A DNA stretch of 64,000 nt, taken from NCBI GenBank assembly GCA_963734545.1, contig CAVTHO010000008.1, forward strand, positions 192,001 to 256,000, in the 5' to 3' direction. Below, piece after piece: positions 19,604 to 38,286 of the stretch. The position numbers and the translations under genes were made by a program. The DNA is from an uncultured Spirochaetota bacterium (GTDB lineage Bacteria > Spirochaetota > Spirochaetia > SZUA-6 > Fen-1364). Positions within the stretch are counted from its first letter, which is position 1. Every line of letters starts with the position of its first letter. The notes beneath the pieces were generated by a model. It was given only the letters and a program-made list of their open reading frames with translations, was not told the origin of the DNA and made no database searches.

Positions 19604-19625
19604 TGGTACAGTAAGGGACTATCAT

Positions 19626-20471: not shown

Positions 20472-20487
20472 GGGAGGGGGTGCACGC

Positions 20488-21361
20488 ATGACCGAGATCA
20501 CGCGCATGGAAGCCCAGAACCAGTGCGGCGAATCACCCGATCTGGGACCCGCGGACCGCGACGCTGTCCTGGGTGGACACCGAGAGGCCGCTGCTCTGCG
20601 CGCTCTCCGACGGGAGCGCGCAGGCCGTGACGATGCCGACGAGCCGGCTCGTGCAGTCCATCGGCCTTCGCCGCTCGGGCGGCTGGGTGGCGGTGGTACG
20701 GGACGGGTTCGCGCTGCTGCAGGCCGACGGCACGGAAGCTCGCTTCCTTGGCAACCCCGTCGAGGGTCTTCCTCACATGACCATGAGCGACGGTACCGTG
20801 GGCCCGGACGGACGCTTCTACGCGGGATCGTTCAACGTGCAGGACCTCGACGCGGCCGACGGGTGCCTCTACCGCGTCGACCACGACGGCGCCGTGGCGA
20901 TAATCGAGACCGGCCTCGTCCTTCCCAACGGGATGGCGTTCAGCCCCGACGGGGGAACCCTGTACGTGACGGAGATGTGGGTCCGCCGCATCGTGGCCTA
21001 TGACTTCGATGCCCAGGCGGGGACCCTCTCGCGCCGCCGGCTGCTCGTGACCGTGCCCGAGTCCGAGGGATACCCCGACGGCCTCATCGTGGACGAGGAG
21101 GGCTGCCTGTGGAGCGGCCACTGGCAGGGGTTCCGGGTCACCCGCTACGACCCCGACGGCAGGAAGGTGCGCCACGTCGATGTTCCCGTGCCCACGGCCA
21201 CCTGCATGGCGTTCGGCGGCCCGGACCTCGACCGGCTCTACATCACGACGGCCAAGAAGGGCCTGACGCCGGAACAGCTCGCCGCGTATCCCTCCGCGGG
21301 CGACCTCTTCATGGTTCGCCCGGGTGTCCGCGGGCGCGCGGAGCACGAGTTCGCCGGTTAG
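20488..21361 (+). CDS. SMP-30/gluconolactonase-family protein (frameshift near 20540)
   Basis: GESP..W, DGTVGPDGRFY, PNGMAFSPDG, PDGLIVDEEG, FGGPDLDRLYITTA. Confidence 0.9.
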
Positions 21362-21448: not shown

Positions 21449-21664
21449 TGTCCAGGACTTCCCGTACCTTGGCCGACAACGGCTGGGCTATCTGCATTTC
21501 GACCTCAAGGAATACCGGGAAGCGCTCGCGTACTGGAGCGCATGCACAAGAAGGATCCCAAGAACGTCCGGGTGTTGACCTCCATTGGCAACTGCTATCG
21601 TAAGCTCAAGACGTATGAGAAGGGGATCCGTTCATCCGCTCTCGGCTCGAACATCGAGCTGTAA
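21449..21664 (+). pseudogene. Fragment of a TPR-repeat protein gene
   Basis: Broken frames give EYREALAYW..MHKKDPKNVRVLTSIGNCYRKLKTYEKG, a TPR-like helix pair; no start or RBS. Confidence 0.45.
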
Positions 21665-21685
21665 CGGGGCGCCCCGTCGTCCAGG

Positions 21686-22685
21686 CTACTGCCCCTCGGT
21701 TACCGGAAACAGCAGCTTCTGGTTCTCCGGCTGGAACATGTTGAGCCGCGAGATGTCGACCGAGCCCGTGTTGATGAATCGGGCGGGCTTCCGGCCGCGA
21801 ATGAGCTCCCGCGCCGTCGTGACTCCGAGATATCCCATGTTGAACGGCTTCTGCACGACGGTGTCGCGGATGATGCCCCGCTCCACGTAGTGCAGCACGA
21901 GCAGCGAATTGTCGAACCCGATGAGCGCGATGGACGCCGCCTTTCCCGGACTCGTCCAGCGCCCGGGCAGCCCCGCGAGCCGTGGGATCGTTCAGCGCCA
22001 CGATCCCGCGCAGGTGCGGCGTGCCGGCGATCAGCCGGGCAGCCTGCGCATACGCCAGCGTCGGCGTCCGCGTTGCTGTACAGCGTGTCGAGGAGCCTGA
22101 CCTTCCCGTCCAGGATGAGTCCCGTGCCCCCGATTCCCGGTCGATGGCGGTCGAGCTGCCCTTGACGTAGCTCATGATCGCCACCAGATCGCCCGGCCGG
22201 ACGTAGCGAAGGAGCGCCGCGGCGCATTTCTGGCCGCCCTCGTAGCTGTCCGTACCGATTCGGGCGTCGGCGTCATCCGAGCTGACAAAAGAGTCGATGC
22301 AGACAAGCGGGATCCCATGGCTCTTGACCTCCCGCGCCGTAGGGACGAGGAGGTTGAAGTCCGCCGCGGCCAGGACGATGGCGTCCGGCTTCTCGGGGAT
22401 TGCGTGTCTGCACGATTGCGATCTGGCCCTCGACATCGGTCTCCACGGCAGGCCCACGGATGGAGACCGTGATACCGAAGTCCTGGCCGGCGGACAAGAC
22501 CCCGTCCCTCACGTTGGCCCAGAACGGATTGGTGGGGAAGTCCACGGTCTTGAATATGACGATCAACCTTCCGCGTCGTCCCGGACGCCGGGCTGAGCAG
22601 ACCGGGCGCCGCGATACAGGACGGTGAGCGTCACAGCGCCAGCGACGGCCGCGGCCAGGAGAACGAGCACCGTGCGGCTTCTCAC
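21686..22685 (-). CDS. Sensor-associated sugar-binding protein, RbsB fold (frameshifted)
   Basis: GTG start with hydrophobic anchor VRSRTVLVLLAAAV; NPFWANVRDG, KPDAIVLAA, IGTDSYEGG, VVQKPFNMGY. Confidence 0.8.
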
Positions 22686-22686
22686 G

Positions 22687-24435
22687 TCACGCTCCCCGGA
22701 GAGCATGGGGATGCGGACCGTCGCGACCGTGCCCACGCCCGGTGTGCTCTCGAAGCTCACGCCGTACTCCAGCCCGAAATAGACGTGAATGCGCTCCTGC
22801 ACGTTCCGCACCCCGACGCCGTTGCTCGGACGGGGCTCGATCAGGCCGTCGCGAAGCGCGGAAAGCTGATCGGGGGCCATTCCCACGCCGTTGTCGCTGA
22901 TGCGGATCACCATCGACTCCCCGTCGCGCTCGCCCGTGATCCGGATGAGCCCGGGCCCCTCGATGTTCTTGATCCCGTGGTAGATGGCGTTCTCCACGAG
23001 GGGCTGGAGGAGAAGCTTGAGGATCTGGGACTCGTGCAGGTCCGGCGCGAAGGCGATCTCGTAGGAGAGCTTGTCCTTGTAGCGCTGCTTCTGGATCTCC
23101 AGGTATGTCTGCATGTACTCGATCTCCGTGCGGACGCTGATGGTCTCCTCTCCGCGGCTGATCCCGATGCGGAAGAAGCGGGCCAGGGAGGAGGTCATGT
23201 CGATGGCCCGCTCGTGTTTCCCCGAGCTCGATCATCCAGATGATCGAGTCCAGCGTGTTGTAGAGGAAATGGGGATTGATCTGCGCCTGCAGGGAGCGCA
23301 GCTCCAGCTTCCGCTTGAGCTCCTGCTCGCGGCGGTTCTGCTCGATGAGGTCGCGGACCTTCTTCACCGCGATGTCGCAGTCCCGGGCGAGCTGGTAGAT
23401 CTCGTTGCGCGCGTTGACGGTGATGTCGATGTCGAAGTTGCCGCTCTCCACGGCCTGCATCGAGTGCCGCAGGCTTTCGATCGGCTTGGAGATGTTGGAC
23501 GAGATGGCCACCCCGGCGGCGATGGCTCCCACCAGGACGAGCAGCGAGAGCATGAGGAACACGTACTCCGCCTGCCGGCTGGCGCGGAACAGCTCGTCCA
23601 GGTAGGAGACGGCCACGACGTCCCAGCCCGTCTCTTTCGAGCTCACCACCGTGTAGAGGATCGCCCGGCCGTCCACCACGGCGTTGAGATTCCCGCCGTG
23701 GAGCGACATGATTTCGGCGATCCGCTCCGACTTGAGGTTCCCGTAGATGAGCTGCTGCCGGGGGTGGTACACGATGTCTCCGCTGCGGCTGAGGATGAAC
23801 ACGTACCCGGAGGTTCCGAGCTGGATGTCCTTGCACAGGCGCGCGATGATCTCGTAGTTGAGGTCCACCTGGATGAGCCCGGGGCTCTCCTCGCCGGGTC
23901 CGACGGGCAGGGCGCGAACGAGGGAGATCACCCAGGGATAGCGATAGTCCACGAGGTTTTCCACGTGGGCGGAGGACACCGACGGCCGGTCCGGGACGAC
24001 CCCGGCCTCCAGCTCGCGAAACCGCTGGCGGAGGTCCACCGTGGGGTTCAGCGCGCCGCCAGTGGTGGCGGCGATGGCGCGCCCGTCCCGGGTGATGACG
24101 AACACGGAATCGATGTCCCGGCGGACGGCCCGGAGGGACTCGAAGGTGGCTTCGATCTTTCCCCGCAGCTGGGGAGAATCCGCACCGGGGTGCGACATGA
24201 ACTCGCGCACGTCCGCGTTGTTGATGGCCATCAGGGCGATGTCGTCCATGTAGCGGATGTAGTTCTCGATGATGCGGTTCAGCTGGCTCACCAGCTGCAT
24301 CGTCGTCTCCTCGGCGTTCTGGATGAGGATCTTGTGCAGGTAGTAGTACGACAGCGTGCCGAGCAGGACCAGGGCGAGCACGATGAGCGTGGCGAAGGCG
24401 CGGATCAGGGTGTCCTGGATGCGGCGGATCTTCAT
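22687..24435 (-). CDS. YesM-family sensor histidine kinase with dCache domain (frameshifted)
   Basis: MKIRRIQDTL start, two TMs, GYVFILSRSGDIVYHP, HAMP, LQAQINPHFLYNTLD, LQPLVENAIYHG, DNGVG. Confidence 0.9.
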   Translation of the reverse strand: MKIRRIQDTLIRAFATLIVLALVLLGTLSYYYLHKILIQNAEETTMQLVSQLNRIIENYIRYMDDIALMAINNADVREFMSHPGADSPQLRGKIEATFESLRAVRRDIDSVFVITRDGRAIAATTGGALNPTVDLRQRFRELEAGVVPDRPSVSSAHVENLVDYRYPWVISLVRALPVGPGEESPGLIQVDLNYEIIARLCKDIQLGTSGYVFILSRSGDIVYHPRQQLIYGNLKSERIAEIMSLHGGNLNAVVDGRAILYTVVSSKETGWDVVAVSYLDELFRASRQAEYVFLMLSLLVLVGAIAAGVAISSNISKPIESLRHSMQAVESGNFDIDITVNARNEIYQLARDCDIAVKKVRDLIEQNRREQELKRKLELRSLQAQINPHFLYNTLDSIIWMIELGETRAGHRHDLLPGPLLPHRDQPRRGDHQRPHGDRVHADIPGDPEAALQGQALLRDRLRAGPARVPDPQASPPAPRGERHLPRDQEHRGARAHPDHGRARRGVDGDPHQRQRRGNGPRSAFRASRRPDRAPSEQRRRGAERAGAHSRLFRAGVRRELREHTGRGHGRDGPHPHALRGA

Positions 24436-26047
24436 GCCGGCGCGGTCTTCCCTCTCCGCTGGGCCCGGAACTCCGTCGGGGTGATCCCGATGTGCCGCTT
24501 GAACATGGTGCTGAAGTACTGCGCATCGGGGTAGCCCGTGGCCTCGGCGATCTCGTACGTCATCAGGTCTGAGGTTGTCAGAAGCTCCTTGGCGCGCTCC
24601 ATGCGGTAGTCGATGAGGTAGTCTACCACGCTTCGGTCCAGGTGGCGCTTGACCAGCTTGGAGAGGTAGCTCGCGCTGATGGAGAGACTGGCGGCGATGG
24701 TCTGCACGGAGAGCGCCCGCTCCCCGTAGTGCCGGGCCACGTAGTCCTTGAAGTCGCGGACCTTCCATTCCGGGGCGGGAAGGTTGCGGCCGTCGAGGAT
24801 CGAGCCGGCGTAGGAGGTGAGCCGGACAAGGAGCGCCTGCACCTCCTCGGCAGTGCGGAGGCGTTGGACGGCGAGGTCGGTGTCCAGGTGGAGGTCCTGG
24901 GCCACGGCGGCCGGGGAGACGCCAAGGTCCCTGCAGCGCGTCCAGGACAGCGGCAAACAGCGCCTCGATCTCGTGCCGGACGCGCTGGGGAGAGATGCCG
25001 GCCTCCCTGAGGAGCGCTGCGAAGGCCGCTGCCTGGACCTCCGCGTCCGCCGATTCTCCGGCCACCGCAGCGCGGCAGAGTGCGCTCCCTCTGCTCGGCA
25101 AGCCCATCGAGGGTCAGCGGGTCGTCCTCGCGCGCTCTCCCGTAGCGAAAGACTCCTCCCGGCGGCGCAACGAGCCGGTAGGAAAGCGCGGCGGAGGCCT
25201 CCGCGAAGCTCCGGGCCGCCTCGCGCCACGAGCCGCATGGCCGGCCAAGGGCGACGATCGGAGCCGGCACTGAAGAAGGAGTCGGACGGGCGGGCGCCAC
25301 CGCCCGCGCGGCGATGGCAGAAGCCAGCCGGTCGCAGGAAATCGCGTCCTGCTCCAGCACAAGGACAGCCTCCCGTCCCTCGGCCGGGGAAAAGCAAAGA
25401 ACGCGGCGAGCGGAGCCGGCCACCTCGGCCGCGGCCGCCGTGAGCCCGGTCGAGCCGTCATGCTCTCCCGCGCCGCCCGGATCGATCTCGGCGACCACCA
25501 CGGCTCCGGCGAGTCCCTCCGGGGAGAAGCCGAAGATCTCCTGGAACCGGGCGTCCGTGGGCTGGGCCGGCGAGCCGCTCACGAGGTCGAGGAGGGTCCG
25601 GGTCCGCAGCAGGCTCGCGGCGGCGGCGGCGCGCTGCTCGAGGGACTTCACCTTCTCCCGGGAGCGCTGGAGGGAATCCAGCCGGACTTTCAGCCTCCCG
25701 AGCAGGCCGGTGAGATCCCGGGAAGTGACCGGTTTGAGCACGTATTCGAAGACGTTGCTCTTGATTGCTTTCTGGGCGTATTCGAACTCGTCGTACCCCG
25801 AGAGGATCACGATGACGATCTCAGGGTGATGCTCCGCGGCATAGGCGGCGACGCCCAGCCCGTCCACGCGCGGCATGGCGATGTCCGTCATGACCACGTC
25901 GGGTTGGAGGGCCTCCATTGCCTCGATGGCCTGCTCCCCGTTCTCGCACGGCTCGAGGAACTCGAAATCGAGGCTGGTCCAGTCGATCTTGCGTCGGAAA
26001 CCGCGGCGGACGATTTCTTCATCGTCCGCCATCAGGAACCTGTACAT
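24432..26047 (-). CDS. YesN-family response regulator (receiver + AraC HTH; frameshifted)
   Basis: MYRFLMADDEEIVR, MTDIAMPRVDG, LSGYDEFEYAQ; C-terminal SYLSKLVK..EIAEATGYPDAQYFSTMFK. Confidence 0.9.
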
Positions 26048-26117
26048 CTGCTGCGCGCCGTTCATTGCCGCGCCCATGATAGCCAGATTCGGGCCGGCCT
26101 GCCAGTCGGAAACAAGG

Positions 26118-26153
26118 GCGGCCGCCCCTCCAGAGGAGAACAGGGGCGGTCGC
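26118..26153 (-). terminator. Stem-loop after binding-protein gene
   Basis: GCGGCCGCCCCT ... AGGGGCGGTCGC inverted repeat just downstream of the 26168 stop. Confidence 0.45.
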
Positions 26154-26167
26154 AGGAAATGGGCTGC

Positions 26168-27127
26168 CTAGTACAGGACGTTCTTGGCCGCGGGAGTGTC
26201 GATGTTGTCTTGCGTGACGATGATGAATCCAGTGTCGACCTTCGCGGGAACCTTCTTCTTGGCGAACGCCGCGTCATATGCAGTCTTGACCCCAAGATAG
26301 CCCATGTTGTAGGAGCTCTGCACGGCGATGGCCTGCAGCGTGCCGTCCTTGACGAAGTTCTGCAGGGCCGCGTTGCCGTCGAAGCCGATGGCAACGATCT
26401 TGCCTGCCAGGCCCGCCTGGGCGATGGCGCGGCCCATCCCGACCGCCGTGGGCTCGTTGGCGCCGAAGATCCCCACGAGATCCGGGTTCGAGGCCAGGAC
26501 GTTCGTGGTCTGGTTGAGCGCGGTGGGCATGTCGGCGTTGGAGTACTGGGTGGTGACGACCTTGAGTTTCGAGTTCTTCGCGATGTAGTCCTTGAAGCCG
26601 CCCACGCGGCCGATCTCGGAGCCGACGCCTGCCACGTACGACATGACCGCGATGTTCCCGCTGTCACTGCCGGTAGCGGCCTTGACGCGGTCGATCAACT
26701 CCTTCGCGCACGCCCTTCCCGCCGCGTCGTTGTCGGTGGCGAGGAACGAGACGTAGTTGGAAGTAGGCCCGGTCAACAGCGAGTCGATGATGACGACCGG
26801 GATGCCGGCGTCCTTGGCCTTCTTGACCACCGGCACCAGGGCGGTGACGTCCGACGGGGCAAGCACGATGGCCTTCACGCCGCGGTCAATCGCGCTTTCC
26901 ATGATGTTGATCTCTTCCGCAATGTTGCTCTCGGACTGGGGTCCGAGGAACGTCACCGAAAGCTTCGGTGTCTTCGCCTTCAGCTCTTTCTGCGCATCGA
27001 AGCATCCGGTCTGGACGTTCTGCCAGAAGCTGGAGTTGCCCGTCTTCACGATCACCGCGATTTCCTGCGCGGACACGAACCCGGCGATGAAGGCAAGGGC
27101 CACGAGAATGAACAAAAGCCTCTTCAT
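26168..27127 (-). CDS. Sugar ABC substrate-binding protein, CUT2
   Basis: Signal peptide; IAVIVKTGNSSFWQ, ATDNDAAG, IFGANE, IGFDG. Confidence 0.9.
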   Translation of the reverse strand: MKRLLFILVALAFIAGFVSAQEIAVIVKTGNSSFWQNVQTGCFDAQKELKAKTPKLSVTFLGPQSESNIAEEINIMESAIDRGVKAIVLAPSDVTALVPVVKKAKDAGIPVVIIDSLLTGPTSNYVSFLATDNDAAGRACAKELIDRVKAATGSDSGNIAVMSYVAGVGSEIGRVGGFKDYIAKNSKLKVVTTQYSNADMPTALNQTTNVLASNPDLVGIFGANEPTAVGMGRAIAQAGLAGKIVAIGFDGNAALQNFVKDGTLQAIAVQSSYNMGYLGVKTAYDAAFAKKKVPAKVDTGFIIVTQDNIDTPAAKNVLY

Positions 27128-27191
27128 ACCGACCTCCTTGAACCATCTTCGCGGTCCATACGGACCGCGGCTTTTTCCTGCCGCAAAGACC

Positions 27192-28196
27192 TCACTTGTT
27201 TCGCAGCTGGTCGAAGGCCACAGCCCCGATCACCACGAGGCCGATCACGATCTGCTGCATGAAGTAGTTCGCCCCCTGCATCGTGAGCCCGACGGTGAGG
27301 ATCCCGATGATGAACGAGCCGATGACGGTTCCGCCGATCGTGCCCACGCCGCCCATGAGGCTGGTGCCGCCGATCACCGCCGCCGCAATGGCGTTCAGCT
27401 CGTAGCCGGTCGCGCTGTTGGGCTGGGACGTGACCATGCGGGAGGCCAGGATCACTCCGACGAGGCCGGCGAGCACGGCGCAGACGATGTAGTTGAAGAT
27501 CTTCACCCATCCCACCCGGATGCCGGAAAGCCGGGCCGCTTCCTCGTTCGAGCCGATGGCGTAGGTATAGCGGCCGATCTTCGTCTTGCGCAGGATGAAG
27601 TGGCAGAGAAAGGCCACCGCGATCATGATCAGCACGGGGTAGGAAATACCGGGGAACTGCACGCCGGTCCTGAACAGCGTGTCGTTGCCCAGGGCGCCGA
27701 ACGCTTCCGGCGCCGGCCAGGCGTTCGCGTTCGTGATCGTGAGCGCCACGCCGCGGGCCACCATCATCATGCCCAGGGTGGCAATGAACGGGGGAAGCTT
27801 CAGACGCGTGATCAGCAGTCCATTGGCGAGACCGCAGATGCCCCCGACGGCCAGGCCGATGAGCCAGCTGATCCAGATGGGGACTCCGGCGATTGCGGCC
27901 ATGACCGCCACCGTGCCGGTCAGGGCGACCACCGACCCGATGGAGAGGTCGATACCGGCGGTGATGATGGTGAACGTCACGCCGATGCCCATGAGTGTCG
28001 TCGTGCTGGTCTGCAGGGCGACGCTCAGGATGTTGCGCATGGTGAAGAAGTTCTTCGCCGTGATGGAAAAGACGGCAAACAGAGCGACAACCGCCCCGAA
28101 GGTGAGGAACCGGTCGAGAGCCACTCGGGACCGTCCCGTTGGGGCGGCCAGCTCGTGGCCTGGTGCATCCTTGCGTGGTGCGTGGCTGTCACTCAT
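27192..28196 (-). CDS. Sugar ABC permease, RbsC-like
   Basis: ITAGIDLSIGS, LPPFIATLG, YAIGSNEEAARLSGI, YELNAIAAAVIGGTSL. Confidence 0.92.
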   Translation of the reverse strand: MSDSHAPRKDAPGHELAAPTGRSRVALDRFLTFGAVVALFAVFSITAKNFFTMRNILSVALQTSTTTLMGIGVTFTIITAGIDLSIGSVVALTGTVAVMAAIAGVPIWISWLIGLAVGGICGLANGLLITRLKLPPFIATLGMMMVARGVALTITNANAWPAPEAFGALGNDTLFRTGVQFPGISYPVLIMIAVAFLCHFILRKTKIGRYTYAIGSNEEAARLSGIRVGWVKIFNYIVCAVLAGLVGVILASRMVTSQPNSATGYELNAIAAAVIGGTSLMGGVGTIGGTVIGSFIIGILTVGLTMQGANYFMQQIVIGLVVIGAVAFDQLRNK

Positions 28197-29749
28197 GTCT
28201 GGCGTCTCTCTTCCGCTCTGCGCAACCGGCCGTTCGGCGGCTTCCCGACCGCCCCCCCCAGGCCCGCAGCAAAGTTCAGGATCTGCTCCTGTGTTGTGTC
28301 CTTCGTCACGAGCGTGGCTTCGAGGCTGCCCTCGTGCAGCACGATGACGCGGTCGGTCATTCCCATGATCTCGGGGAGCTCAGAGGAGATCATGATGATC
28401 CCCACCCCCTCCCTCGCCAGCCGCTCGATCAGCTCGTAGATGGCGAACTTGGTGCCGACGTCGATTCCCCGGGTCGGCTCGTCGAAGATGAGGATCTTCG
28501 AATCGCAGAAGAGCCATTTCGCCACCACGACCTTCTGCTGGTTCCCGCCGGAGAGGTTGTTGACCACCTGGAGGAGACTGGGAGTGCGGATGGCGAGCTC
28601 ATCCACGTAGCGCTGGCACGCCTTCAGCTCGCGGCGGCGCGAGATCACGCCCATGCGGCTGGACACGCCTCCCATGTTGGCCAGCGTGACGTTTTCCGCC
28701 AGCAGCATCCTGACGGCAAGCCCTTCCTGCTTGCGGTTCTCCGAGAGGTAGGCGATTCCCGCACTGATAGATTCAGAGGGGGAGAGAATGGACAGCTTCT
28801 TTCCGTTCATGATCACGGTCCCCGAATCAATAGGGTCCGCCCCGAAGATCGCGCGCCCCAGCTCTGATCTGCCCGCACCCATCAGGCCGGCGAAACCGAG
28901 GATCTCGCCGCGGTACAGGTCGAACGAGATATCATGCAGAACGCCCCGGCGCACGATATTGCGCACCTCGAGGATCTTCTCCGTCGTCGGCACGTTGTGC
29001 CGCGTGGGGAACTTCTGCTCCAGCGTCCGCCCCACCATGCGGTTGACGATGGTGTCCATCGAGATCGAGCTATACGCATCGGTGCTGACATAGCGGCCGT
29101 CTCGGAAGATGGAGATGCGGTCCACGATATGCTTCAGCTCTTCCAGTCGATGGGAGATGTAGATGATCGCAACCCCCCGGTCGCGCAGCGTGTGGATGAC
29201 GGTGAAAAGCTCGTCGATCTCCGATTCGGTCAGTGCGCTGGTCGGCTCGTCCATGATGAGCACCTCGGAATCGAACGAGAGGGATTTCGCGATTTCCACC
29301 ATCTGCTGCTTGGAGATCGGAAGCCTGTTCAGCGTGATGGTCGGGTCGATGCGGAGGTTCAGCCGTTCCAGGATGGAGACGGCCTCGTCGTTCATCTTCT
29401 TTTCGTTCAGGGTCTTCAGCCACGTCAGCGGCTCCCGGCCGATGAAGATGTTGGCGGCGACCGACAGGTGAGGGATGAGGTTGAGCTCCTGGTAGATGAT
29501 CCCGATGCCGGCGTCCCGGGCCTGGGTCGAATTGTGGAACCGCACCTCGCGGCCCTTAAGGCGGATGACACCCTCGTCCGCCTGGTATACTCCGGAGAGG
29601 ATTTTCATGAGAGTGGACTTGCCTGCCCCGTTCTCCCCCACCAGGGCGTGAACCTCGCCCTTGCGGAGGTCGAGCGATACCTGGTCAAGCGCCTTCACGC
29701 CCGGGAAGCTCTTCGATACTTTTTCGACCTCGAGGATGACCTCTTGCAT
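28193..29749 (-). CDS. Sugar ABC ATP-binding protein, RbsA-like
   Basis: MQEVILEV start; GENGAGKST, DEPT, LSGGNQQK. Confidence 0.92.
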   Translation of the reverse strand: MQEVILEVEKVSKSFPGVKALDQVSLDLRKGEVHALVGENGAGKSTLMKILSGVYQADEGVIRLKGREVRFHNSTQARDAGIGIIYQELNLIPHLSVAANIFIGREPLTWLKTLNEKKMNDEAVSILERLNLRIDPTITLNRLPISKQQMVEIAKSLSFDSEVLIMDEPTSALTESEIDELFTVIHTLRDRGVAIIYISHRLEELKHIVDRISIFRDGRYVSTDAYSSISMDTIVNRMVGRTLEQKFPTRHNVPTTEKILEVRNIVRRGVLHDISFDLYRGEILGFAGLMGAGRSELGRAIFGADPIDSGTVIMNGKKLSILSPSESISAGIAYLSENRKQEGLAVRMLLAENVTLANMGGVSSRMGVISRRRELKACQRYVDELAIRTPSLLQVVNNLSGGNQQKVVVAKWLFCDSKILIFDEPTRGIDVGTKFAIYELIERLAREGVGIIMISSELPEIMGMTDRVIVLHEGSLEATLVTKDTTQEQILNFAAGLGGAVGKPPNGRLRRAEERRQT

Positions 29750-29857
29750 GTGCGGGGACCTGCCCACCGCACATGAAGGCACGGCCCCGGGGCGAACACA
29801 ATCGAGAATACGGCACAAAAGGTTGGATTTCCGGCACTGTGCCGCCACGCGGTAAGG

Positions 29858-30685
29858 CTAGAACCCGCGAAGGTCGGTGCTGGATCTTCGAGGCAGCCCG
29901 GCGGCGGGGACGCGTCTGAGCACGAGATACTCGAGCCGATGCGCGCGGCAGAACTCACGTTTCTCCGTGTTGTCCCCGTCCTCGTTTACCGCGTACACGT
30001 GCGCCCCGATGCTCCTGATCTCCGGCTCGGCATCCATCCACCCTGACCCGGTGGACACGAGAGAACGGTGCACGTGGCGCACGGCCGCCGTCATGTAGCG
30101 GCGCTGGTCCTGGGGAAAGCGCGGGTGGCCGTCCCCCTTGAGGAGCCTCACGTTCGCGTCGTGGCCCACCACCACGTACAGCTCCCCGTAGCCCGACACT
30201 TCCTCGAAGAATCGGACGTGACCCGAGTGCAGCCAGTCGTAGCAGCCGGTCACCACGACGCGACGCTTCGAGGCGTCGGAAGGCGGCAGCGAAGGCTCCG
30301 GGAAGCCCTCGAGATCGCGGTCCGTGAACGCGCGAATCGACGCGCCGAGCCCCGCCGACATCCGAACGGCCGCCTCCACTTCCGCGACCGGCCCTTTCAT
30401 GTCCGCACACACGACCGGCCCGCTCCGCAGATCCGTCACCCGGCGCCATGGCTCCCGCCAGTCATCGACCATGACGACGCGGCTGACGAACCGCAGGGAG
30501 CCGACGAGATAGCGTCGCTCCTCAAGCGCGAACCTTGGCGGGCCGCCGGTGGCAGCGGTGATTGCCGAGTCGGTCCACAGCAGCACCGTGACCTCGCCGA
30601 TGCGCGAGGACTCGTGGAGAAACCGCACGTGCCGGAGCCCCAGGTCATCGAAGCTCCCGGTGACCACAGCGACAGCCTGACTCAC
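29858..30685 (-). CDS. Tandem cytidylyltransferase-like (HxGH) nucleotidyltransferase
   Basis: GTG start VSQAVAVVTGSFDDLGLRHVRFL; second domain VTGCYDWLHSGHVRFF; C-terminal RRSSTDLR. Confidence 0.8.
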   Translation of the reverse strand: MSQAVAVVTGSFDDLGLRHVRFLHESSRIGEVTVLLWTDSAITAATGGPPRFALEERRYLVGSLRFVSRVVMVDDWREPWRRVTDLRSGPVVCADMKGPVAEVEAAVRMSAGLGASIRAFTDRDLEGFPEPSLPPSDASKRRVVVTGCYDWLHSGHVRFFEEVSGYGELYVVVGHDANVRLLKGDGHPRFPQDQRRYMTAAVRHVHRSLVSTGSGWMDAEPEIRSIGAHVYAVNEDGDNTEKREFCRAHRLEYLVLRRVPAAGLPRRSSTDLRGF

Positions 30686-31479
30686 CGGCCGGCCTCGCCT
30701 GTGCGTACCTGCACGCCGAAGGACCCCGGCACCGGCTCTTCGCTCACCACGTACAGGTATCCGCCGCCGCACCCCGAGTACATCGCCCCGTGAGAGCGTT
30801 CCTGGTAGCAGCGCAGGAGCCCTGCCAGGTCGACGGGTGATTCTGCAGGGCGAACCACCTGGGGAAGCAGCGCTTCCCAGCAGCGCATGCACTCGTTCAT
30901 CGACTCACCCAGCGCAGCCGCATCCATTGCCAGGATAGCCTCCCAGCAGGAGCGTCCCGATCTCCCCAGCCGCCCGATCCACGCCGGGTCGAGGTTCTTG
31001 ACCGCCAGCGGCTCGTAGCCTGCCGGTCTCGGCGCCACGGGCAGCACCTTGATGACCCGCTCCAGCCACCGCGCCACCTCGGGCGCCGAGCAGGTCTCGA
31101 TGGCGCTAGGGAACACGCCGCCCTCCACCGATGCGTTGTAGTCCAGGCGGCACACGCCGGGATAGAGCAGTCCCACCATGTCCTGTGATCCCGACGGCTC
31201 CTTCTTCCCCTGGTTCTCCGCCTCATACAGCTCCCGAACCAGCCGTGAAGGGTCCCCGTCCGGCATCCGACCACCCCAGTGGCGCATGGCCACCGCGCGC
31301 GTGGAGGTGGCCATGCCGCAGCGGTCCATCCATCGGAACGTCGGCTCCACGGCCACCGTCACCATGGAGCCCGGGGGCTCGGGATTGAGCCGGGACACGA
31401 AGGGCTGATCGATCCAGCCGCCGGCGAACGCCATGCGGTAGGGGATCGGCCCGATAACGCCGCAGAGGTCGCTCCCCAT
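30682..31479 (-). CDS. GHMP-superfamily sugar kinase-like protein
   Basis: PYRMAFAGGWIDQP (motif I-like), RCGMATST (motif II variant), SGSQD, GAMYSGCGGGY (motif III-like). Confidence 0.7.
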   Translation of the reverse strand: MGSDLCGVIGPIPYRMAFAGGWIDQPFVSRLNPEPPGSMVTVAVEPTFRWMDRCGMATSTRAVAMRHWGGRMPDGDPSRLVRELYEAENQGKKEPSGSQDMVGLLYPGVCRLDYNASVEGGVFPSAIETCSAPEVARWLERVIKVLPVAPRPAGYEPLAVKNLDPAWIGRLGRSGRSCWEAILAMDAAALGESMNECMRCWEALLPQVVRPAESPVDLAGLLRCYQERSHGAMYSGCGGGYLYVVSEEPVPGSFGVQVRTGEAGR

Positions 31480-31489
31480 GACTGTCAGC

Positions 31490-32494
31490 TCACGGCGCGC
31501 TTGCCCGACCGTGCGGTCGCGATACTGCTGCTCGATCCAATTGTAGGTCCTGGCGAGTCCGTCCTTCAGCGAGGTGTCCGGCTCCCAGCCGAGGATCCGG
31601 TGGATCATCGTGTTGTCGCTGTTTCGGCCGGCCACGCCGCGCGGCGCCGTGGGATCGTAGCGCCGGGTGAGCTTCACGCCGCCGATCGTCTCTGCCAGCG
31701 TCGCCAGGTCGTTGATGGAGACCAGCTCGGAAGAGCCGAGGTTGATCGGTGTGGCCACCAGCTTCTCGCAATGCATGATCTTGTCGATGCCCTTCGTGCA
31801 GTCATCGATGTACATGAAGCTGCGCGTCTGCGTCCCGTCTCCCCAGATCGTGATCTCCTTCGCGCCCGTGTCCTTCGCCTCGATGACCTTGCGGCACAGC
31901 GCCGCCGGCGCCTTCTCCCGGCCGCCGTCCCACGTGCCGAAGGGGCCATACACGTTGTGGAACCGCGCGATGAACGTCGGCATGCCGCGCTCGGCGGTGT
32001 ACTCCTGGCAGAACATCTCCGAGATCAGCTTCTCCCAACCGTAGCCGCGCTCGGCCATGGCGGGATACGCGTCGGACTCCTTCAAGCGCGCGGACCTTCG
32101 GGTCCTTCTGCAGATCGGTGTTGTACGCGCAGGCCGACGAGGAGAAGAAGTACCGCTCGGCGCCGGCGCGCCAGGCCGCTTCGACCAGGTGCGTGTTGAT
32201 CAGGACGCTGCGCAGGCAGTCCACGCGGTGGCGCTCGATGAAGCCCATGCCCCCCATGTCCGCGGCCAGGTTGTACACCTCGGCGGCGCCTTCCACGGCG
32301 CGCCGGCAGTTCTCCGGATCGCTCAGGTCGAGGCTGAGGCTCTCCACGCCGGGGGTTCTCTGGTACCATTCCGAGAGCGGCTTCTTGTCCACCGCGCGGA
32401 TCCGCGTGAAACCCTTGTCGTGGAAATAGCGGGCAAGGGCGCCGGCAATGAAGCCTCCCGCGCCGGCGACTACGATCAGATCGTTCTTTTCCAT
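31490..32494 (-). CDS. NAD-dependent epimerase, GDP-mannose 3,5-epimerase-like (frameshifted)
   Basis: GAGGFIA, YNLAADMGGMGFI, SSACAY, YGWEKL, RFHNVYGPFGTWDGGREKAPAALCRK, GRNSDN. Confidence 0.88.
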
Positions 32495-32602
32495 TCCATT
32501 CCTCCCCGGAAAGATCATAGCGCCGCCGCGGCTTTCCGGAATGCCCGAAATGCGTATACTTTATCACGTTTTGCGAACTTTATCGGCGGGAGGCGGACCT
32601 GG

Positions 32603-33739
32603 ATGCGGGCTCATCGACGCAGACGCGTAGGGCTGTTCATGGGGCTCATCGACCACTACGAGCACGGGATCGCGCGGGGAGTCGTGCGCTTCGCCCGCGG
32701 ACGGCCGGATTGGGACCTGTACGGCTTCGGGTGGATGTTCCAGGCCATGGGATCCCTGGAGCGCTGGGACGGGGACGGGATCATCGCGCGCGTCGAGTCC
32801 CGCCGAGACGCCGACCTCCTGGCCGCGCGCGGGATCCCCGTGGTGGACGTGGCCGGCGCGTGGCCGCGGCCGGGATTCCGGCAGGTGAGCAACGACGACC
32901 GCGCCACGGGCCGCCTCGCCGGTCGGCACCTGAAGACGCTGGGGCGCCGCACCTTCGCCTTCTGCGGCGTGGCGCGGGTGGGATGGTCGCGACACCGCCG
33001 CGATGCCTTCCGCGACGTGGTCGCGACGACTCGCTTGTCCGTATTCGAGCAGTCCCTGGGCTGGTGGGAAAAACTCCATCGCTCGGAAGCGTTCGATCGC
33101 TGGCTGACCGCGCTCCCGAGGCCGGCAGCGCTGTTCGCCTGCAACGACACGGTCGGATTGAAGGCGGCGGCCGCCGCCCGGCGGCTGGGCCTGGCGGTCC
33201 CGGGCGATCTTTCCATCCTGGGAGTGGACAACGAGGACATCCTCTGCGAGCTGTCCGTGCCGCCGCTGTCCAGTATCGCGCTGAACCTCGAGCGCATCGG
33301 GTGGGAGGCAGCGGAGGCCCTGGCCTCGTTCATGGACGGCCGTCCCGGCCGCGCGGCAGCGGCGGTATCCCCGCGCGAAGTGGTGGAGCGCGAGTCCACG
33401 CGGACGCTCGCCACGGGAGACGCGCTGGTGGATCGCGCGCTGGGAGCTATTCACGGCGCGGCGGCAGGACGACTCACCGTTGCCCGGCTCCTTCTGTCAG
33501 TCCCCTGCTCGCGACGGACGCTGGAAAAAAGGTTCCGGGCCACGCTGGGCCGCAGCATCCACGAGGAGATCATCAGGAGACGGATCGACGAGGCGCGCCG
33601 CCTGCTTCGGGACACGACCTTCACGATTGCCTCCGTTGCGGAAGAGACCGGTTTCGCCAACGCCCAGCGCTTTTACGCCGCGTTTCGAAAGCTGCAAGGC
33701 GCAACTCCGGGCGCCTACCGCCGCACCTATCGGGGTTGA
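32603..33739 (+). CDS. XylR-like regulator (LacI-type sensor + AraC HTH)
   Basis: DGIIARV, LFACND, ILGVDNED, LSSIALN; C-terminal SRRTLEKRFR..VAEETGF. Confidence 0.88.
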   Translation: MRAHRRRRVGLFMGLIDHYEHGIARGVVRFARGRPDWDLYGFGWMFQAMGSLERWDGDGIIARVESRRDADLLAARGIPVVDVAGAWPRPGFRQVSNDDRATGRLAGRHLKTLGRRTFAFCGVARVGWSRHRRDAFRDVVATTRLSVFEQSLGWWEKLHRSEAFDRWLTALPRPAALFACNDTVGLKAAAAARRLGLAVPGDLSILGVDNEDILCELSVPPLSSIALNLERIGWEAAEALASFMDGRPGRAAAAVSPREVVERESTRTLATGDALVDRALGAIHGAAAGRLTVARLLLSVPCSRRTLEKRFRATLGRSIHEEIIRRRIDEARRLLRDTTFTIASVAEETGFANAQRFYAAFRKLQGATPGAYRRTYRG

Positions 33740-35301
33740 CGGCGGGCGGCCTCTCCGGAAAGATGGTCGGCCAGGCGCAGGGCAAGGGCGACTATCGTGA
33801 GTGTCGGGTTGGCATAGCCGCTCGTCGGGAAGACGGCGCTGCCCGCCGCGTAGAGGTTGTCGATCCGGTGGAAACGGCAGTCAGGGTTCACGATGCCGTC
33901 ATCAGGCGACACGGACATGCGGAGGCTCCCCATGTGGTGGTCGCCCGTGGCGAGCGCGGTCTCCGCCCGGCCGAAAGTCCAGCGCTCCGGTCCGCCGGAG
34001 AGATCAGTCAAAATCCTGAACCCGGTAGACCCGTTCCGCTCGAGATGGTCGCGGACGAGATCCAGAGCCTTGACCGCCGTCCGCTTGTCCTCCTCGCGGA
34101 GCCGCCAGTCGACGTGTGCCACGGGCTGCCCGAAGACGGGATCAACCTCCGCGTGATCGAGGCCGATCACGCTTTCCTCGTTGGCAACCTGTTCCCAGTT
34201 GAGATTGACTTCCGCCCTGTCGCCGGCGGGATCGAAGCGCAAGATGGCGCGGAAGTTGCCGATTCGTTCCTCCGCCATCGTCGCTGCCGTCGGGACGAGG
34301 ACGCCCCAGGCGTTGAATACCTCGTACTTCGCCATGAGCCCGGGGCTCACGAGTGGGGCGCTGTCATGGACGAAGGTGTCCCCTTCGGGTCGGAGCCGGA
34401 CCTGCTGGTCGCGGAAGAAGTTCCTGGCCTCCAGAGGGAGGGGCGTGGCGAACCGGGCCTCCGCGGCTGTCGTGAGGAGGGGATGGACCATGAAGCCGCG
34501 CCCGAGGTGATCGTGACGATTGTTCCCGAGATCACCGGAAAGCTTGAGCTTCCGGACGGTCTCGATGCCTCCCATCGCAAGGACATAGAAGGCAGCTTCA
34601 ACGTGGAAACGACGGTCCGCTTGTCCCTCGCGCTGAGAGGCGCAGAGGAGCCGCCGCACGTGCACGCCGTCGTCGCTTTCAATGGAAAGGAGGTGCGCGT
34701 TGAACAGCACCGTCACGTTCGGCGCGGCACGGAGCGCCTCCCCGAGCTGGACCTGGAATTGTCGCACGGTGTCCGTGTACTGCGCGTGAAAGACCGCCCG
34801 GGCAAGACGATCCTCCGCCTTCCGCGGGAAGCCCGCGCCGCCGAGAACAGGCTCCCAGAAAGCGAGATCGTGATAGTTGTATGGACCGTATCGGCCGTAC
34901 GCGTTCGCCTCGGCATACCAGGAATCGAGCGAGGTCCGCGGGATTGGCCACGCGGCGGAGCGGTACCCCTGCCGCGGCAGGAAGTCCGCCTCGTCGAGAG
35001 GCCGGGCCCAGAACCCGAAATGGTTCGTCGTCCCACCGTACATGTTGAGCCGTGAGCGGCGCAGGAAGAGCGGATCGACTCGGCCCAGGAAAGGGCCGAC
35101 GGTGCCCCCGTAGACTTTCTGGCGAGATCCGGGCGGCAGCCCGCGGTCCGTTGGCAGCCCGCTCGCCAGGACGAGCACCTTGAGCGGCGAGCGCATGAGA
35201 CGGTGCGCCATGGCCAGTCCCGCGGCCCCGGCGCCGGCGATGCAGACGTCGAAGGCTCGCAGGTTTTTGACAGCTTCGAGGTCGCCGGATTCAACGTACA
35301 T
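33727..35301 (-). CDS. GMC-family FAD oxidoreductase
   Basis: DVCIAGAGAAG, YGGTTNHF, LGRGFMVHP, HHMGSLRM, GYANPTLTIVALA. Confidence 0.88.
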   Translation of the reverse strand: MYVESGDLEAVKNLRAFDVCIAGAGAAGLAMAHRLMRSPLKVLVLASGLPTDRGLPPGSRQKVYGGTVGPFLGRVDPLFLRRSRLNMYGGTTNHFGFWARPLDEADFLPRQGYRSAAWPIPRTSLDSWYAEANAYGRYGPYNYHDLAFWEPVLGGAGFPRKAEDRLARAVFHAQYTDTVRQFQVQLGEALRAAPNVTVLFNAHLLSIESDDGVHVRRLLCASQREGQADRRFHVEAAFYVLAMGGIETVRKLKLSGDLGNNRHDHLGRGFMVHPLLTTAAEARFATPLPLEARNFFRDQQVRLRPEGDTFVHDSAPLVSPGLMAKYEVFNAWGVLVPTAATMAEERIGNFRAILRFDPAGDRAEVNLNWEQVANEESVIGLDHAEVDPVFGQPVAHVDWRLREEDKRTAVKALDLVRDHLERNGSTGFRILTDLSGGPERWTFGRAETALATGDHHMGSLRMSVSPDDGIVNPDCRFHRIDNLYAAGSAVFPTSGYANPTLTIVALALRLADHLSGEAARRQPR

Positions 35302-35322
35302 GAGTTCGCCGAACAGCGCGGT

Positions 35323-36159
35323 TCATGCCTGGCGGCACAGGTATTCGTCCACGCCGGACTGCCAGGAAGGCAACTGGTGACCCGTGACCAGCCGAAAGAG
35401 CCTGCAGTCCAGCACGGTCCGGCCCGGCCTTCGGGCGGCCCGCGCGGCGGCGCCCTCCAGCTTCTCCAGCGGCACCGTGCGTCTTGCCTTCGAAAGCACG
35501 TAGCGCGCAAACTCCAGCCGCGTGCAGGCTCCGAGGCTCGTTGCGTGGTATGTCCCATACGCGCCGGTAGGTATGAGAGCGCGGATTGCGGAGGCCACGT
35601 GCGGAACGTATGTCGGTGACTCGAGCTGGTCCTCTGCCATCCGCACCACGCCGTCCCTGTCCGCGGCAGTCAGCACGCGCTCCACGTAGTTCTTCGGCCG
35701 GTGACCGAAGAGCCAGGAGGTCCTTACGATGTACGTCATCGGCCAGATGGCGGCTGCGAGCCTTTCCCCCGCGAGTTTCGACTTGCCATACTGGTTGATC
35801 GGGTTCGGTGATGAGAACTCGTCGTAGTCTTCCCGTTCCGTGCCATCGAACACGTAATCCGTGGAGACCAGCAGGTACTCGGCGGAGAGCGTTCGGGCGG
35901 CCAGCGCCAGGTTCTGCGAGCCCACGGCGTTCACCTTCCAGGCCCAGTCCGGCTGCTTCTCGCAGATCTCGACGTCTACCAGGGCCGCCGAGTTCAGGAT
36001 GAGGTCGGGCTTCGTCCGTGCTACCCGCGCCAGGGTGCCCGCCCTGTCCGTGATATCGATCTCATCGACATCCCACGCAGCCACGTCATGCTCGCAGGCG
36101 AGCACGCGCGCGAGCTCGCTTCCGAGCATCCCTTTGGCGCCGATGACTACGATTTTCAT
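35323..36159 (-). CDS. rfbD: dTDP-4-dehydrorhamnose reductase (RmlD)-family SDR
   Basis: MKIVVIGAKGMLG, STDYVFDG, PINQYGKSKLAGE, RTSWLFG, SPTY (C-terminal part of ORF 35323-38124). Confidence 0.85.
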   Translation of the reverse strand: MKIVVIGAKGMLGSELARVLACEHDVAAWDVDEIDITDRAGTLARVARTKPDLILNSAALVDVEICEKQPDWAWKVNAVGSQNLALAARTLSAEYLLVSTDYVFDGTEREDYDEFSSPNPINQYGKSKLAGERLAAAIWPMTYIVRTSWLFGHRPKNYVERVLTAADRDGVVRMAEDQLESPTYVPHVASAIRALIPTGAYGTYHATSLGACTRLEFARYVLSKARRTVPLEKLEGAAARAARRPGRTVLDCRLFRLVTGHQLPSWQSGVDEYLCRQA

Positions 36160-36184
36160 TTTGCATCCCCGTCCAGATGAACTT

Positions 36185-37307
36185 TCATACGGCGGCGACC
36201 CTCTCCCAGCGGCCGGACATGGCCGAGGAGTAGAGGGCGTCGACCACGAGATGATTGGCCACACCATCGGCGAGCCCCGGGCTCGGGTCTTGGTCCTCGA
36301 AGATTGACTTGAGGAACCGGTACAGGCTCTCGGCATGCAGCCTCTCCCAGCCGAGGATGGCCCGGGCCGGAGGCACCGAGGCTCCGGGGAAACTCGAGAT
36401 GGTCTCCAGGCGGACCCAGCCGGCCCCGGCGGCGGGGTGTGTCGCGTCGTAGAAGTAGAGCCAGTTGGCATCCATGAGGTCGAAGCGCAGGGCCCCCTTG
36501 GAGCCTTCGATCCGGATGCGGAGGTCATCGGCCGAACCGGTGGCGAAGCGCGAGACGATGAGGCTGCCGAGAGCCCCCGAGGCCATGCGGAACTGCATCC
36601 AGGCGGCGTCGTCCACGGTGACGCGGCCGAGCTCGCTCCCCCCTCTTTTGAGCGGGCGCTGCGTGATGTAGGTCTTCGTCTCCGCAAAGACCTCCGTCGA
36701 TCTCGCCGAGGAGCCAGCGGATGAGGTCGATGACGTGGGAGCCAAGATCCACTATGGCGCCGCCTCCTGAGCTCTCGAAGCGCATGCGCCAGGTGAGGGG
36801 ACGGGAGGCGTCCTGGTAGCCTCCGTGCAGGTACTCGCTGTGGAAACCGTAGATCTCGCCGAGGGCTCCCGCCTCGATGAGGGCCCTGGCCTTCACCAGG
36901 GCCGGCGCGAAGCGGTAGTTGAAGGTGATGCCGAGACGGCTGCTGGAACGGACCGCGGCGGCCGCGATCTCCCGGGCCTCGGCCCCGGAAAGGGCCAGCG
37001 GCTTCTCGCAGGTGACGTGCTTGCCCGCGTCCAGGGCGAGAAGGATGGCCTCCTTGTGGGCGTAGTTGGGAAGGACAACGTCGATGACGTGCACGTCGGG
37101 ATCCGCCACCAGTGCCCGCATGTCGGCGTAGGCGCGCTTGAAGCCTCCCTCGCGGGCCGCGGCATCCGCCGTCTCGGTCGAGCTCGTGCAGACCGCAGCC
37201 ATCACGTAGCGCGGCAGCGAGGGATAGATCCCCGGGATGGATCGGTACGCCAGGGCGTGGAGTTTTCCGATGCTGCCATATCCCAGCATGCCGACGCCGA
37301 GGGGCAT
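36185..37307 (-). CDS. Gfo/Idh/MocA-family oxidoreductase (frameshift near 36700)
   Basis: GMLGYGSIG, AGKHVTCEKPLA, FNYRF, GGGAIVDLGSHVID, IEGSKG. Confidence 0.9.
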
Positions 37308-37316
37308 GACTTCGGC

Positions 37317-38124
37317 CTACTTTGCCGCCAGACCTGACGGTCCGCGATGCGCCTCCGAGGCGGCGTCCATTCTTCGCGCGGAGCGAGCGGACCGCGGCGG
37401 CGATCTCCCCCGAGCCGGGCTTGAACTTGCCGCTCTTTCCCTTGAGGAGCGGCGAGGAGAACTCGCCCACCGTCATGCCCCTGGCGATGAAACCCTCGAC
37501 GTTGCCCTCGTTGAGCCCACCGTCCTCCATGAGGTCGCAGACCGATTCCCTCCCGGCCGCGACGATCATGTCGTGGAGGCGACCGATGTTGTCGTACATG
37601 ATAGGGTCGACCGTATGAGGGCTCTTCGCGCCGCTCGTGGGTTTCCAGAACGGAGCCTTGCACTCGTATTCCACTATGTCGACGAAGGGCACGTACTGCT
37701 CGAAGGCGACGATCGGCGTGCCTTGCCAGGCCCACACGCCCACCTTGAGCTCGAGAGTCTCCTTCACGAAGACGACCTGCTGCATGAGCATTTCCCCCGT
37801 CGTCTCGATGGGGAGACTGATAAGATTCGCGCCGAGGTCCTTGAGCTGGCGGAAAAGGTCGAACGAGGGGCGCATCATCTGGAGCTGGACTTCGATCTCG
37901 AGAGAGGTCCGCGGCCGGATGCCGTCGAGAATGTCGATTCCCCCGCGCGGCGCGGCGAAGTCCATGTACTTGCCGTCCCTCATCTCGATGTGAACCCAGT
38001 CCGCCCCGCCGGCCTCGAACTCCTCGACCGTAGCCCCGAGGTAGCCGTAGTCCGCCCAGAAGAGTCCAGCTGCGATCTTCGCCTGCCTGGCCACCCGGCC
38101 GATCTTTTCCTTTGCTGTAGCCAT
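37317..38124 (-). CDS. Divergent ribulose-phosphate 3-epimerase-family protein (frameshift near 37370)
   Basis: GADWVHIEMRDG, EIEVQLQMMRP, MEDGGLN; TIM-barrel Rpe pattern with altered metal ligands. Confidence 0.7.
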
Positions 38125-38144
38125 TGCCCTCTCTCTCGGCCGAA

Positions 38145-38213
38145 AGGATAGCCTTGGTCATGGAGGAAGTCAAGAAAAAACTATCACTTGAAAGATAACT
38201 ACTTTCATATGAT
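38145..38213. promoter_or_regulatory. Divergent promoter region with inverted-repeat operator
   Basis: Minus-strand TTGACT (38173-38168), 17 bp, TATCCT (38150-38145); palindrome TGAAAG-N7-CTTTCA at 38189-38207. Confidence 0.5.
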
Positions 38214-38286
38214 CCTTGCTTCGTGATAGACTGTGGCGAGCCGGCGGCAATCCGAGTGGGACCGACGACCGGCGCGAGGAGGAACC

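Follow-up and report, generated by a model that had tools for sequence, protein, structure and literature searches.

What would a bacterium gain from placing a plant-like GDP-mannose 3,5-epimerase (GM35E), a sugar kinase and a nucleotidyltransferase together, between a sugar-responsive regulator and a sugar importer? The question is raised by a stretch of 64,000 nucleotides (hereafter the window; positions 192,001 to 256,000 of contig CAVTHO010000008.1, assembly GCA_963734545.1) from an uncultured Spirochaetota bacterium whose genome amounts to 5.14 Mb in 10 contigs and is rated 89% complete. A preliminary description of the locus had proposed that a sugar is imported, phosphorylated, activated with a nucleotide and epimerised into mannose metabolism, a scheme that comparative genomics supports by inference. 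We propose that the module is a catabolic route resembling the Leloir pathway in its pyrophosphorylase form, and that its substrate is an L-hexose brought in from outside, similar in shape to L-fucose and most probably L-galactose; we give this reading a probability of roughly 60%.

In the proposed route, each enzyme step of which is deduced from homology and gene context, the ABC (ATP-binding cassette) importer would take up the free sugar and a fucokinase-like kinase of the GHMP fold would phosphorylate it at C1. An enzyme of the cytidylyltransferase fold would then attach a nucleotide, presumably from GTP, to the sugar-1-phosphate and so yield GDP-L-galactose, which the GM35E-type epimerase would turn into GDP-D-mannose, the side favoured at equilibrium. 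From there ManC, phosphomannomutase (PMM) and phosphomannose isomerase (PMI) would lead to fructose 6-phosphate, so that the net reaction would be L-galactose + ATP -> fructose 6-phosphate + ADP. The XylR-like regulator would exert control through a conserved site in the intergenic region, and an adjacent two-component system would act on the importer. The window has a G+C content of about 66% and consequently many spurious open reading frames (ORFs); gene order was taken from three-frame translation and Pfam matches, by which all the genes previously named were recovered on the strands given for them. The core of the locus reads as follows.

26168-27127, minus strand: periplasmic sugar-binding protein (SBP) of the ABC importer, CUT2 (ribose) type; Peripla_BP_4, 1.4e-60.
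27192-28196, minus strand: permease of the ABC importer; BPD_transp_2, 3e-46.
28193-29749, minus strand: ATPase of the ABC importer with two ABC domains; ABC_tran, 5.2e-53, in two stretches.
29858-30679, minus strand: tandem nucleotidyltransferase of the cytidylyltransferase fold; CTP_transf_like, 38 bits against a cut-off of 21; its start codon is uncertain.
30682-31479, minus strand: compact, fucokinase-like sugar kinase of the GHMP fold, 265 amino acids, assigned by family profile and fold; no Pfam match.
31485-32494, minus strand: GM35E-type short-chain dehydrogenase/reductase (SDR), similar to plant GME, with two one-base insertions.
32547-32575, no strand: AT-rich block of 29 nucleotides, candidate operator or promoter, kept in the intergenic regions of relatives.
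32603-33739, plus strand: XylR-like regulator, divergent from the epimerase; Peripla_BP_3, 3.7e-32, and HTH_18, 1.2e-20.

The gap of 108 bp announced between the stop codon of the transferase and the ATG of the importer ATPase is exact (29750-29857). A Pfam scan of 34 window ORFs between 14.0 and 48.0 kb revealed neither a glycosyltransferase nor an exporter, in line with the earlier claim that such genes are absent nearby. Nucleotide-sugar biosynthesis genes, however, are not strictly missing from the surroundings, because an RmlD-family gene lies at 35326-36180.

The C-terminal half of the epimerase matches the plant GME structures 8sg0 and 2c59 at 7.5e-54. Excerpts of PMC8787198 define GM35E, as opposed to GDP-fucose synthase (GMER), by S143, Y174, K178, C145, K217, R306 and R243: GMER carries His in the acid-base pair and Lys in place of Arg306, which acidifies the Cys, while Arg243 contacts the diphosphate. 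With Arabidopsis numbering, and with positions placed by visual comparison with the aligned 8sg0 and 2c59 sequences, all seven signature residues are found in the translation of our gene. The SDR triad S143/Y174/K178 falls in SSSAC and YGWEK, and the Cys145/Lys217 acid-base pair, Arg306 and Arg243 are kept as well (SSAC, REKAPAA, GTQTRSF, GVAGRNSDN), next to a glycine motif of the GxxGxxA type. The three motifs on which the first assignment relied, SSAC, YxxEK (here YGWEK) and EKAPAA, are thus all present.

The kinase is harder to recognise. At E<=0.01 it matches no Pfam family, neither GHMP_kinases_N nor GHMP_kinases_C; as a single sequence it reaches only 14.7 bits against the end of the FKP model of NCBIfam (cut-off 721) and E 1.3 against the PDB. 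The GHMP label given to it earlier therefore does not stand on Pfam; it is borne out by the family profile and by the AlphaFold fold. Searched against the PDB, the profile finds the L-fucokinase of FKP at 6e-15, followed by anomeric heptose kinases at 4e-8 and mevalonate kinases. The predicted model (pLDDT 91, pTM 0.90) has the fucokinase part of FKP as its top Foldseek match, at 14% identity in the fold alignment, and the listed part of its 103 matches at E<=0.001 consists entirely of GHMP-fold enzymes and their close kin. An alignment of 23 sequences displays the GHMP-like motifs IPYRxxLAGGWxDQP, R.GMATSTR and SGAGGGGY, which we take to be the N-terminal PxRxxxxGG.D, the phosphate loop and the C-terminal GAGGGG. 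Judged by profile and predicted fold, then, this is a compact GHMP-fold kinase whose nearest solved relative is L-fucokinase. It belongs to a large family: of 8,000 candidates scored, 7,682 reach E<=0.001, the family forms 671 clusters at 50% identity, and among the 120 relatives listed no Pfam domain is recorded and the sole name given by the source, where there is one, is 'hypothetical protein'. Twelve of 20 distant homologues scanned carry an N-terminal CTP_transf_like domain; in P0176 this is preceded by an L-rhamnose mutarotase domain (rhaM-CT-kinase) and in P0259 by a nucleoside phosphorylase (nucleoside phosphorylase-CT-kinase). Two of these fused relatives, P0211 and P0259, pass the GHMP_kinases_C cut-off.

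The conservation of the three genes, and of what surrounds them, carries the catabolic reading. All 20 genomes of the same genus have epimerase and kinase side by side, as do 5 of 20 other relatives searched. Among 20 loci fetched from relatives, the transferase follows in 12 (at the threshold chosen) and the block of ABC importer and sensor genes is linked in 10, in several arrangements. We then scanned species-representative genomes with the kinase alignment and retained the 80 best of 594 confirmed places. These loci were all picked through the kinase, their counts are plain tblastn presence and their family names were assigned through Pfam matches of cluster representatives. Kinase identity ranges from 58 to 71%, with one locus at 93%, and the loci are spread over eight phylum-level groups or more: Chloroflexota, Planctomycetota, Verrucomicrobiota (with Kiritimatiellia and Victivallales), Acidobacteriota, Latescibacterota, Armatimonadota, Rhodothermales and Spirochaetota. 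All three genes occur in 60 of the 80, which answers the proposed check on the conservation of the trio, and epimerase and transferase are each present in 69. A regulator of LacI, AraC or XylR type accompanies 37 loci, ManC 23, a GH29 protein (alpha-L-fucosidase family) 12 and the mutarotase FucU 11. The importer travels along in part: our SBP is 73-80% identical to those adjoining the trio in three Chloroflexota loci (L060, L075, L101), and the permease is equally close (73-80%) to those of L060, L067, L075 and L101. In the closest relative locus (L013:5649-7018) the permease is read as two overlapping ORFs; in the window it is whole.

Of 419 neighbouring ORFs of at least 140 amino acids that lie outside the annotated clusters and up to 6.5 kb from the module, we also scanned the 215 within 2.6 kb. 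L-fucose isomerase is found in L086, L101 and L103, with a fragment in L059, FGGY kinases in L034 and L101, rhaM mutarotases in L065 and L073, and a further FucU in L075. PMM follows ManC in L035, and PMI stands between transferase and ManC in L038. In two Verrucomicrobiota loci (L078:14944-15552, L079:4183-4743) a NUDIX hydrolase comes after the module, and it could free mannose-1-phosphate from GDP-mannose in place of ManC. Other neighbours are MFS, SSF and SBP transporters, glycoside hydrolases of families GH1, 2, 27, 31, 39, 42, 65 and 127, esterases and sulfatases, along with many unrelated housekeeping genes among the 215. Read from sequence, the context of the module is one of uptake and breakdown of sugars of the L-fucose type.

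L-fucose is 6-deoxy-L-galactose, and the question follows of which of the two sugars enters the route. The simplest alternative would be salvage of L-fucose itself, with kinase and transferase making GDP-L-fucose and the epimerase acting on GDP-L-fucose, or on GDP-mannose for another purpose. The kinase is indeed nearest to L-fucokinase, and GH29, FucU and FucI are by name L-fucose genes. However, FucI and FGGY kinases, where adjacent, already provide L-fucose with a catabolic route of its own, salvage needs no epimerase although one is present in 69 of the 80 loci, and a 3,5-epimerase acting on GDP-L-fucose would be expected to yield a 6-deoxy-D-mannose sugar for which no further route is known, so that we find this explanation hardly probable. 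L-galactose fits better because the conversion of GDP-L-galactose to GDP-mannose is favoured at equilibrium: the ratio reported for GM35E in the sections of PMC6678494 consulted is 80:15:5 in favour of GDP-mannose, and the same sections state that FKP accepts L-galactose. We infer from this that flux runs toward GDP-mannose.

Several observations weigh against this catabolic reading of the module. The identity of the sugar is argued by analogy. Within the genome itself, ManC adjoins a PMM-PMI fusion, but some 88 kb away from the trio; its GH29 homologues are weak matches that lie apart from the trio, and a search of the genome for a mutarotase found none. Epimerase and transferase are each lacking next to the kinase in 11 of the 80 loci. 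Of five genomes with a kinase-transferase pair and no adjacent epimerase, four encode an epimerase elsewhere that is 60-83% identical, and the fifth has none at E<=1e-30. To these are added the points, taken up below in turn, that concern the envelope, the choice of nucleotide and the broken frame of the epimerase gene.

The main rival is a biosynthetic or salvage role, in which ManC and the epimerase would make GDP-L-galactose or GDP-L-gulose de novo, and kinase and transferase would recover it from free sugar, for glycosyltransferases encoded elsewhere, comparable to the part played by FKP in the use of fucose by Bacteroides. ManC, PMM and PMI would be needed equally by a biosynthetic GDP-L-galactose operon, and as neighbours they suit the de novo direction. 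Lipopolysaccharide and antibiotic synthesis are the bacterial GM35E roles that the portions of PMC8787198 and PMC6678494 at hand put on record. Distant kinase homologues are fused to glycosyltransferases (P0171 to GT2 and P0181 to a TcdA/B-type transferase, with a weak sub-threshold match in P0165), and these multi-domain forms, together with P0176 and P0259, indicate that the wider kinase family serves several pathways. A GT41 protein (L038) and a Wzy_C protein (L099) are found next to the module. They are, however, the only envelope-biosynthesis genes among the 215 close neighbours, so that the capsule and lipopolysaccharide clusters in which such trios might have been expected, had the catabolic idea been wrong, are not where they sit. 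The genes that recur beside the module are those for sugar-responsive regulators, importers, mutarotases and GH29, together with L-fucose catabolic genes; the importer accompanies the trio across phyla, and the equilibrium runs against GDP-L-galactose. On balance we regard a biosynthetic role as unlikely, though it deserves to be kept in mind.

The putative GDP-forming step constitutes the main tension in the pathway. The C-terminal domain of the transferase carries HSGH and RRSST, while the N-terminal domain keeps the fold without HxGH; we take HxGH and the C-terminal motif of the ISST type to be signatures of the cytidylyltransferases (PF01467). Both the family profile (8.9e-23 against the PDB) and the predicted structure (pLDDT 93.8; Foldseek TMq 0.71-0.73, identity 18-19%) have human ECT as their top match, and single-domain matches are TagD, HldC, Fom1 and CCT. 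In NCBIfam the best match is the heptose-1-phosphate adenylyltransferase RfaE domain II/HldC, at 60.1 bits and thus under the cut-off of 181.5. The solved relatives use CTP (ECT, TagD, CCT) or ATP (HldC, PPAT), not GTP, and we know of no GTP-using member of the fold. These facts speak for a rival in which the transferase makes a CDP- or ADP-sugar and the preference of the epimerase is altered, the substrate then not being L-galactose nor the product GDP-mannose. Such a shift seems quite improbable to us: the substrate-binding half of the epimerase retains its similarity to plant GME and its diphosphate-binding R243, ManC is adjacent in 23 of the 80 loci, and in one of the 80 the transferase is replaced by a GDP-fucose pyrophosphorylase. 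In this locus, from a metagenome-assembled genome (MAG) of Bryobacterales (L097:5360-8924), a fucose pyrophosphorylase of the FKP type (PF07959, 1.6e-40) lies directly upstream of epimerase and kinase and there is no gene of the cytidylyltransferase fold, which looks like non-orthologous displacement; among 255 neighbour proteins scanned, it is the only locus with a PF07959 partner. Because of this displacement and the linkage to ManC, the transferase is expected to make a GDP-sugar in spite of its fold.

As assembled, the epimerase gene is not one intact frame: it is read in three, separated by two +1 shifts. One extra base lies near 32083-32087, inside a CGCGCGC run, and the other near 31508-31512, where it removes an in-frame stop so that the tail of the epimerase appears fused to the kinase. 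We rejected the resulting ORF of 467 amino acids (30682-32085) as a true fusion: the relatives end in ...GKxTVS-stop, which the second frameshift masks here, and in all nine relatives whose junction was read this stop comes 10-30 nucleotides ahead of the kinase start. In a MAG of Planctomycetia (L102:8071-9798) the C-terminal part of the epimerase and the kinase form one ORF of 575 amino acids, which may be a real fusion or another frameshift.

Could the epimerase be a real pseudogene in a decaying locus? This would concern the genome of the window only, and would say nothing about what the module does. Two frame breaks within 1 kb are suggestive, as are a further three in the neighbouring sensor genes. 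One of these is in the histidine kinase, near 23215, where the L013 orthologue of 595 amino acids matches in two frames, and two are in the response regulator, near 24934 and 25090, where the L013 orthologue matches in three segments; a Gfo/Idh/MocA gene nearby has one break too. However, essential genes are affected likewise. Of six long ones tested, rpoB, gyrA and uvrA are whole, and rpoC (C9:92395-96472), ileS (C7:233821-236323) and secA (C7:220275-222669) are each split between two reading frames with abutting coordinates, as indel errors in this 10-contig assembly would produce. In the relatives' loci that hold both halves of the epimerase the gene is in one frame (9 of 9), and contigs of related strains are free of the extra base at 31512 (run X1) and at 32083-32087 (runs X1 and X4). 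Kinase, transferase, importer and regulator are intact here and 67-95% identical to those of L013. No sequencing run holding more than 0.22 of the sampled words was found in a search for the source reads of the two indels; pieces of run X5 are identical to the window over 29903-31067, and none span either indel site. Since relatives lack both bases and three of six essential genes are split, the breaks are probably assembly errors, and a decaying locus strikes us as highly doubtful. Most likely, to judge from these sequence comparisons, the epimerase is intact in the organism and the assembly contains many indel errors; frequent single-base indels may also explain the completeness estimate of 89%.

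The regulator had been called XylR-like and divergent from the trio, and it does lie divergent, on the plus strand from 32603. Peripla_BP_3 and HTH_18 are clear in it, but PBP1_XylR scores 26.0 bits, just below its cut-off of 27; in 17 of the 20 relatives' loci the regulator is likewise divergent from the epimerase. All 16 aligned sequences of the 108-nucleotide spacer between the two keep the AT-rich block of 29 nucleotides, in which the core GCGTATA never varies, and conservation makes it a candidate operator or promoter. Even when up to 6 mismatches were allowed, the genome gave no second copy, and hence no regulon can be drawn from it. A scan of 25900-33900 gave one promoter-like and four terminator-like sites, no more than in shuffled sequences. 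The sensor system beside the importer exists, as the preliminary description had said, but at 21606-26077, beyond the limits of that description.

24432-26077, minus strand: YesN-like response regulator with an AraC-type HTH; Response_reg, 5.9e-20, and HTH_18, 1.2e-22, on separate pieces.
22563-24534, minus strand: YesM-like sensor histidine kinase; Pfam matches to dCache, HAMP, His_kinase and HATPase_c on two pieces.
21606-22457, minus strand: periplasmic-binding-protein-like gene; Peripla_BP_4, 2.5e-23, profile positions 46-209.

The last of these is likely the third component of the sensor system; its domain is only partly in frame, and a homologue holds the same place in relatives. For the importer SBP, the best NCBIfam match is a D-allose SBP at 142 bits, far under the cut-off of 335.

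Further out, the window contains several other features. At 15683-19289 the G+C content is only 45-48% (66% in the genome) and a second ribose-type ABC transporter is encoded, with two permease genes and a split ATPase; this stretch may be recently acquired DNA, and no Rfam family was found in 9500-20500. On the other side, the flank at 33727-40538 contains two GMC oxidoreductases, an RmlD-family reductase, the frame-broken Gfo/Idh/MocA oxidoreductase, a gene resembling ribulose-phosphate-3-epimerase (RPE) and a ROK protein. When one GMC, the RmlD, the Gfo, the RPE-like and the ROK genes were compared with the 20 relatives' loci, only the RmlD-like gene was matched, weakly, in L027 (30%), and this variable flank may be a separate sugar-oxidation cluster. 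At 40848-44000 a DeoR regulator adjoins a glycyl radical enzyme resembling pyruvate formate-lyase (PFL-like, 2.9e-186).

The wider proposal that follows is that uncultured polysaccharide degraders of at least eight phylum-level groups feed L-galactose from plant or algal glycans through GDP-L-galactose and GDP-mannose into glycolysis, using a compact L-galactose 1-kinase, a guanylyltransferase of the cytidylyltransferase fold, which to our knowledge would be the first, and GME in reverse. We consider the odds for this general form to be about even. If it is true, bacteria would have a third means of living on L-galactose, a non-oxidative one, GDP-mannose 3,5-epimerase would gain its first catabolic role, and two large unannotated families, those of the kinase and the transferase, would be given functions. 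Enzymes for preparing GDP-L-galactose from free L-galactose would become available as well; the GM35E literature describes this nucleotide sugar as scarce and costly (PMC6678494, in the sections consulted). The spread over phyla would moreover suggest that sugars of the L-galactose type matter more in glycan turnover than assumed. In the literature searched, whose coverage excludes subscription journals, no description of a bacterial route feeding L-galactose into GDP-mannose was found, and names of the type L-galactokinase or GDP-L-galactose pyrophosphorylase gave, on a full-text search, only a kiwifruit review. The text of PMC12732313, on the evolution of FKP, contains neither 'L-galactose' nor 'cytidylyltransferase'.

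How does the module compare with systems already known? With human ECT (PDB 3elb, 4xsv), its best match in sequence and fold, the transferase shares the tandem two-domain cytidylyltransferase fold and HxGH; ECT uses CTP and phosphoethanolamine, whereas our enzyme lacks HxGH in its N-terminal domain and is expected to act on a sugar-1-phosphate. The FKP salvage system of Bacteroides likewise joins a GHMP-type anomeric kinase for an L-sugar to a pyrophosphorylase, and no solved structure is nearer to the kinase than that of FKP. However, the kinase of the module has 265 amino acids and lacks a fused fucose pyrophosphorylase, its partner differs in fold, an epimerase comes next and the setting is a catabolic one, whereas FKP serves glycan decoration. 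Plant GME and MfGM35E of Methylacidiphilum fumariolicum have the same catalytic residues and GxxGxxA-type glycine motif, similarity to plant GME being very high, but their known roles are in ascorbate and cell wall synthesis (plants) and in lipopolysaccharides and antibiotics (bacteria), and the flux proposed here would be the reverse. The oxidative catabolism of L-galactose would share with the module its presumed substrate and its ecological purpose. Bacteroides follows such a route, through an L-galactose dehydrogenase. Another is encoded by lguABCDEF of Luteolibacter (PMC12632266, in excerpt). In these the free sugar is oxidised to L-galactonate, whereas the module would proceed through a sugar-1-phosphate and a nucleotide-sugar, with redox chemistry only within the epimerase. 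The closest likeness in logic is to the Leloir pathway in its Isselbacher form (GalM, GalK, UDP-sugar pyrophosphorylase, GalE), where a mutarotase, a GHMP anomeric kinase, nucleotide activation and an SDR epimerase also succeed one another with a sugar-responsive regulator and an importer alongside. Still, the sugar here would be an L-hexose, the carrier is expected to be GDP rather than UDP, and the epimerase would invert C3 and C5 instead of C4. The transferase has the cytidylyltransferase fold and not that of GalT (HIT) or of UDP-sugar pyrophosphorylase, and the kinase is compact and fucokinase-like. None of the enzymes is orthologous to GalK, GalT or GalE; kinase and epimerase belong to the same superfamilies but to other families, so that the module works like the Leloir pathway without being a member of it.

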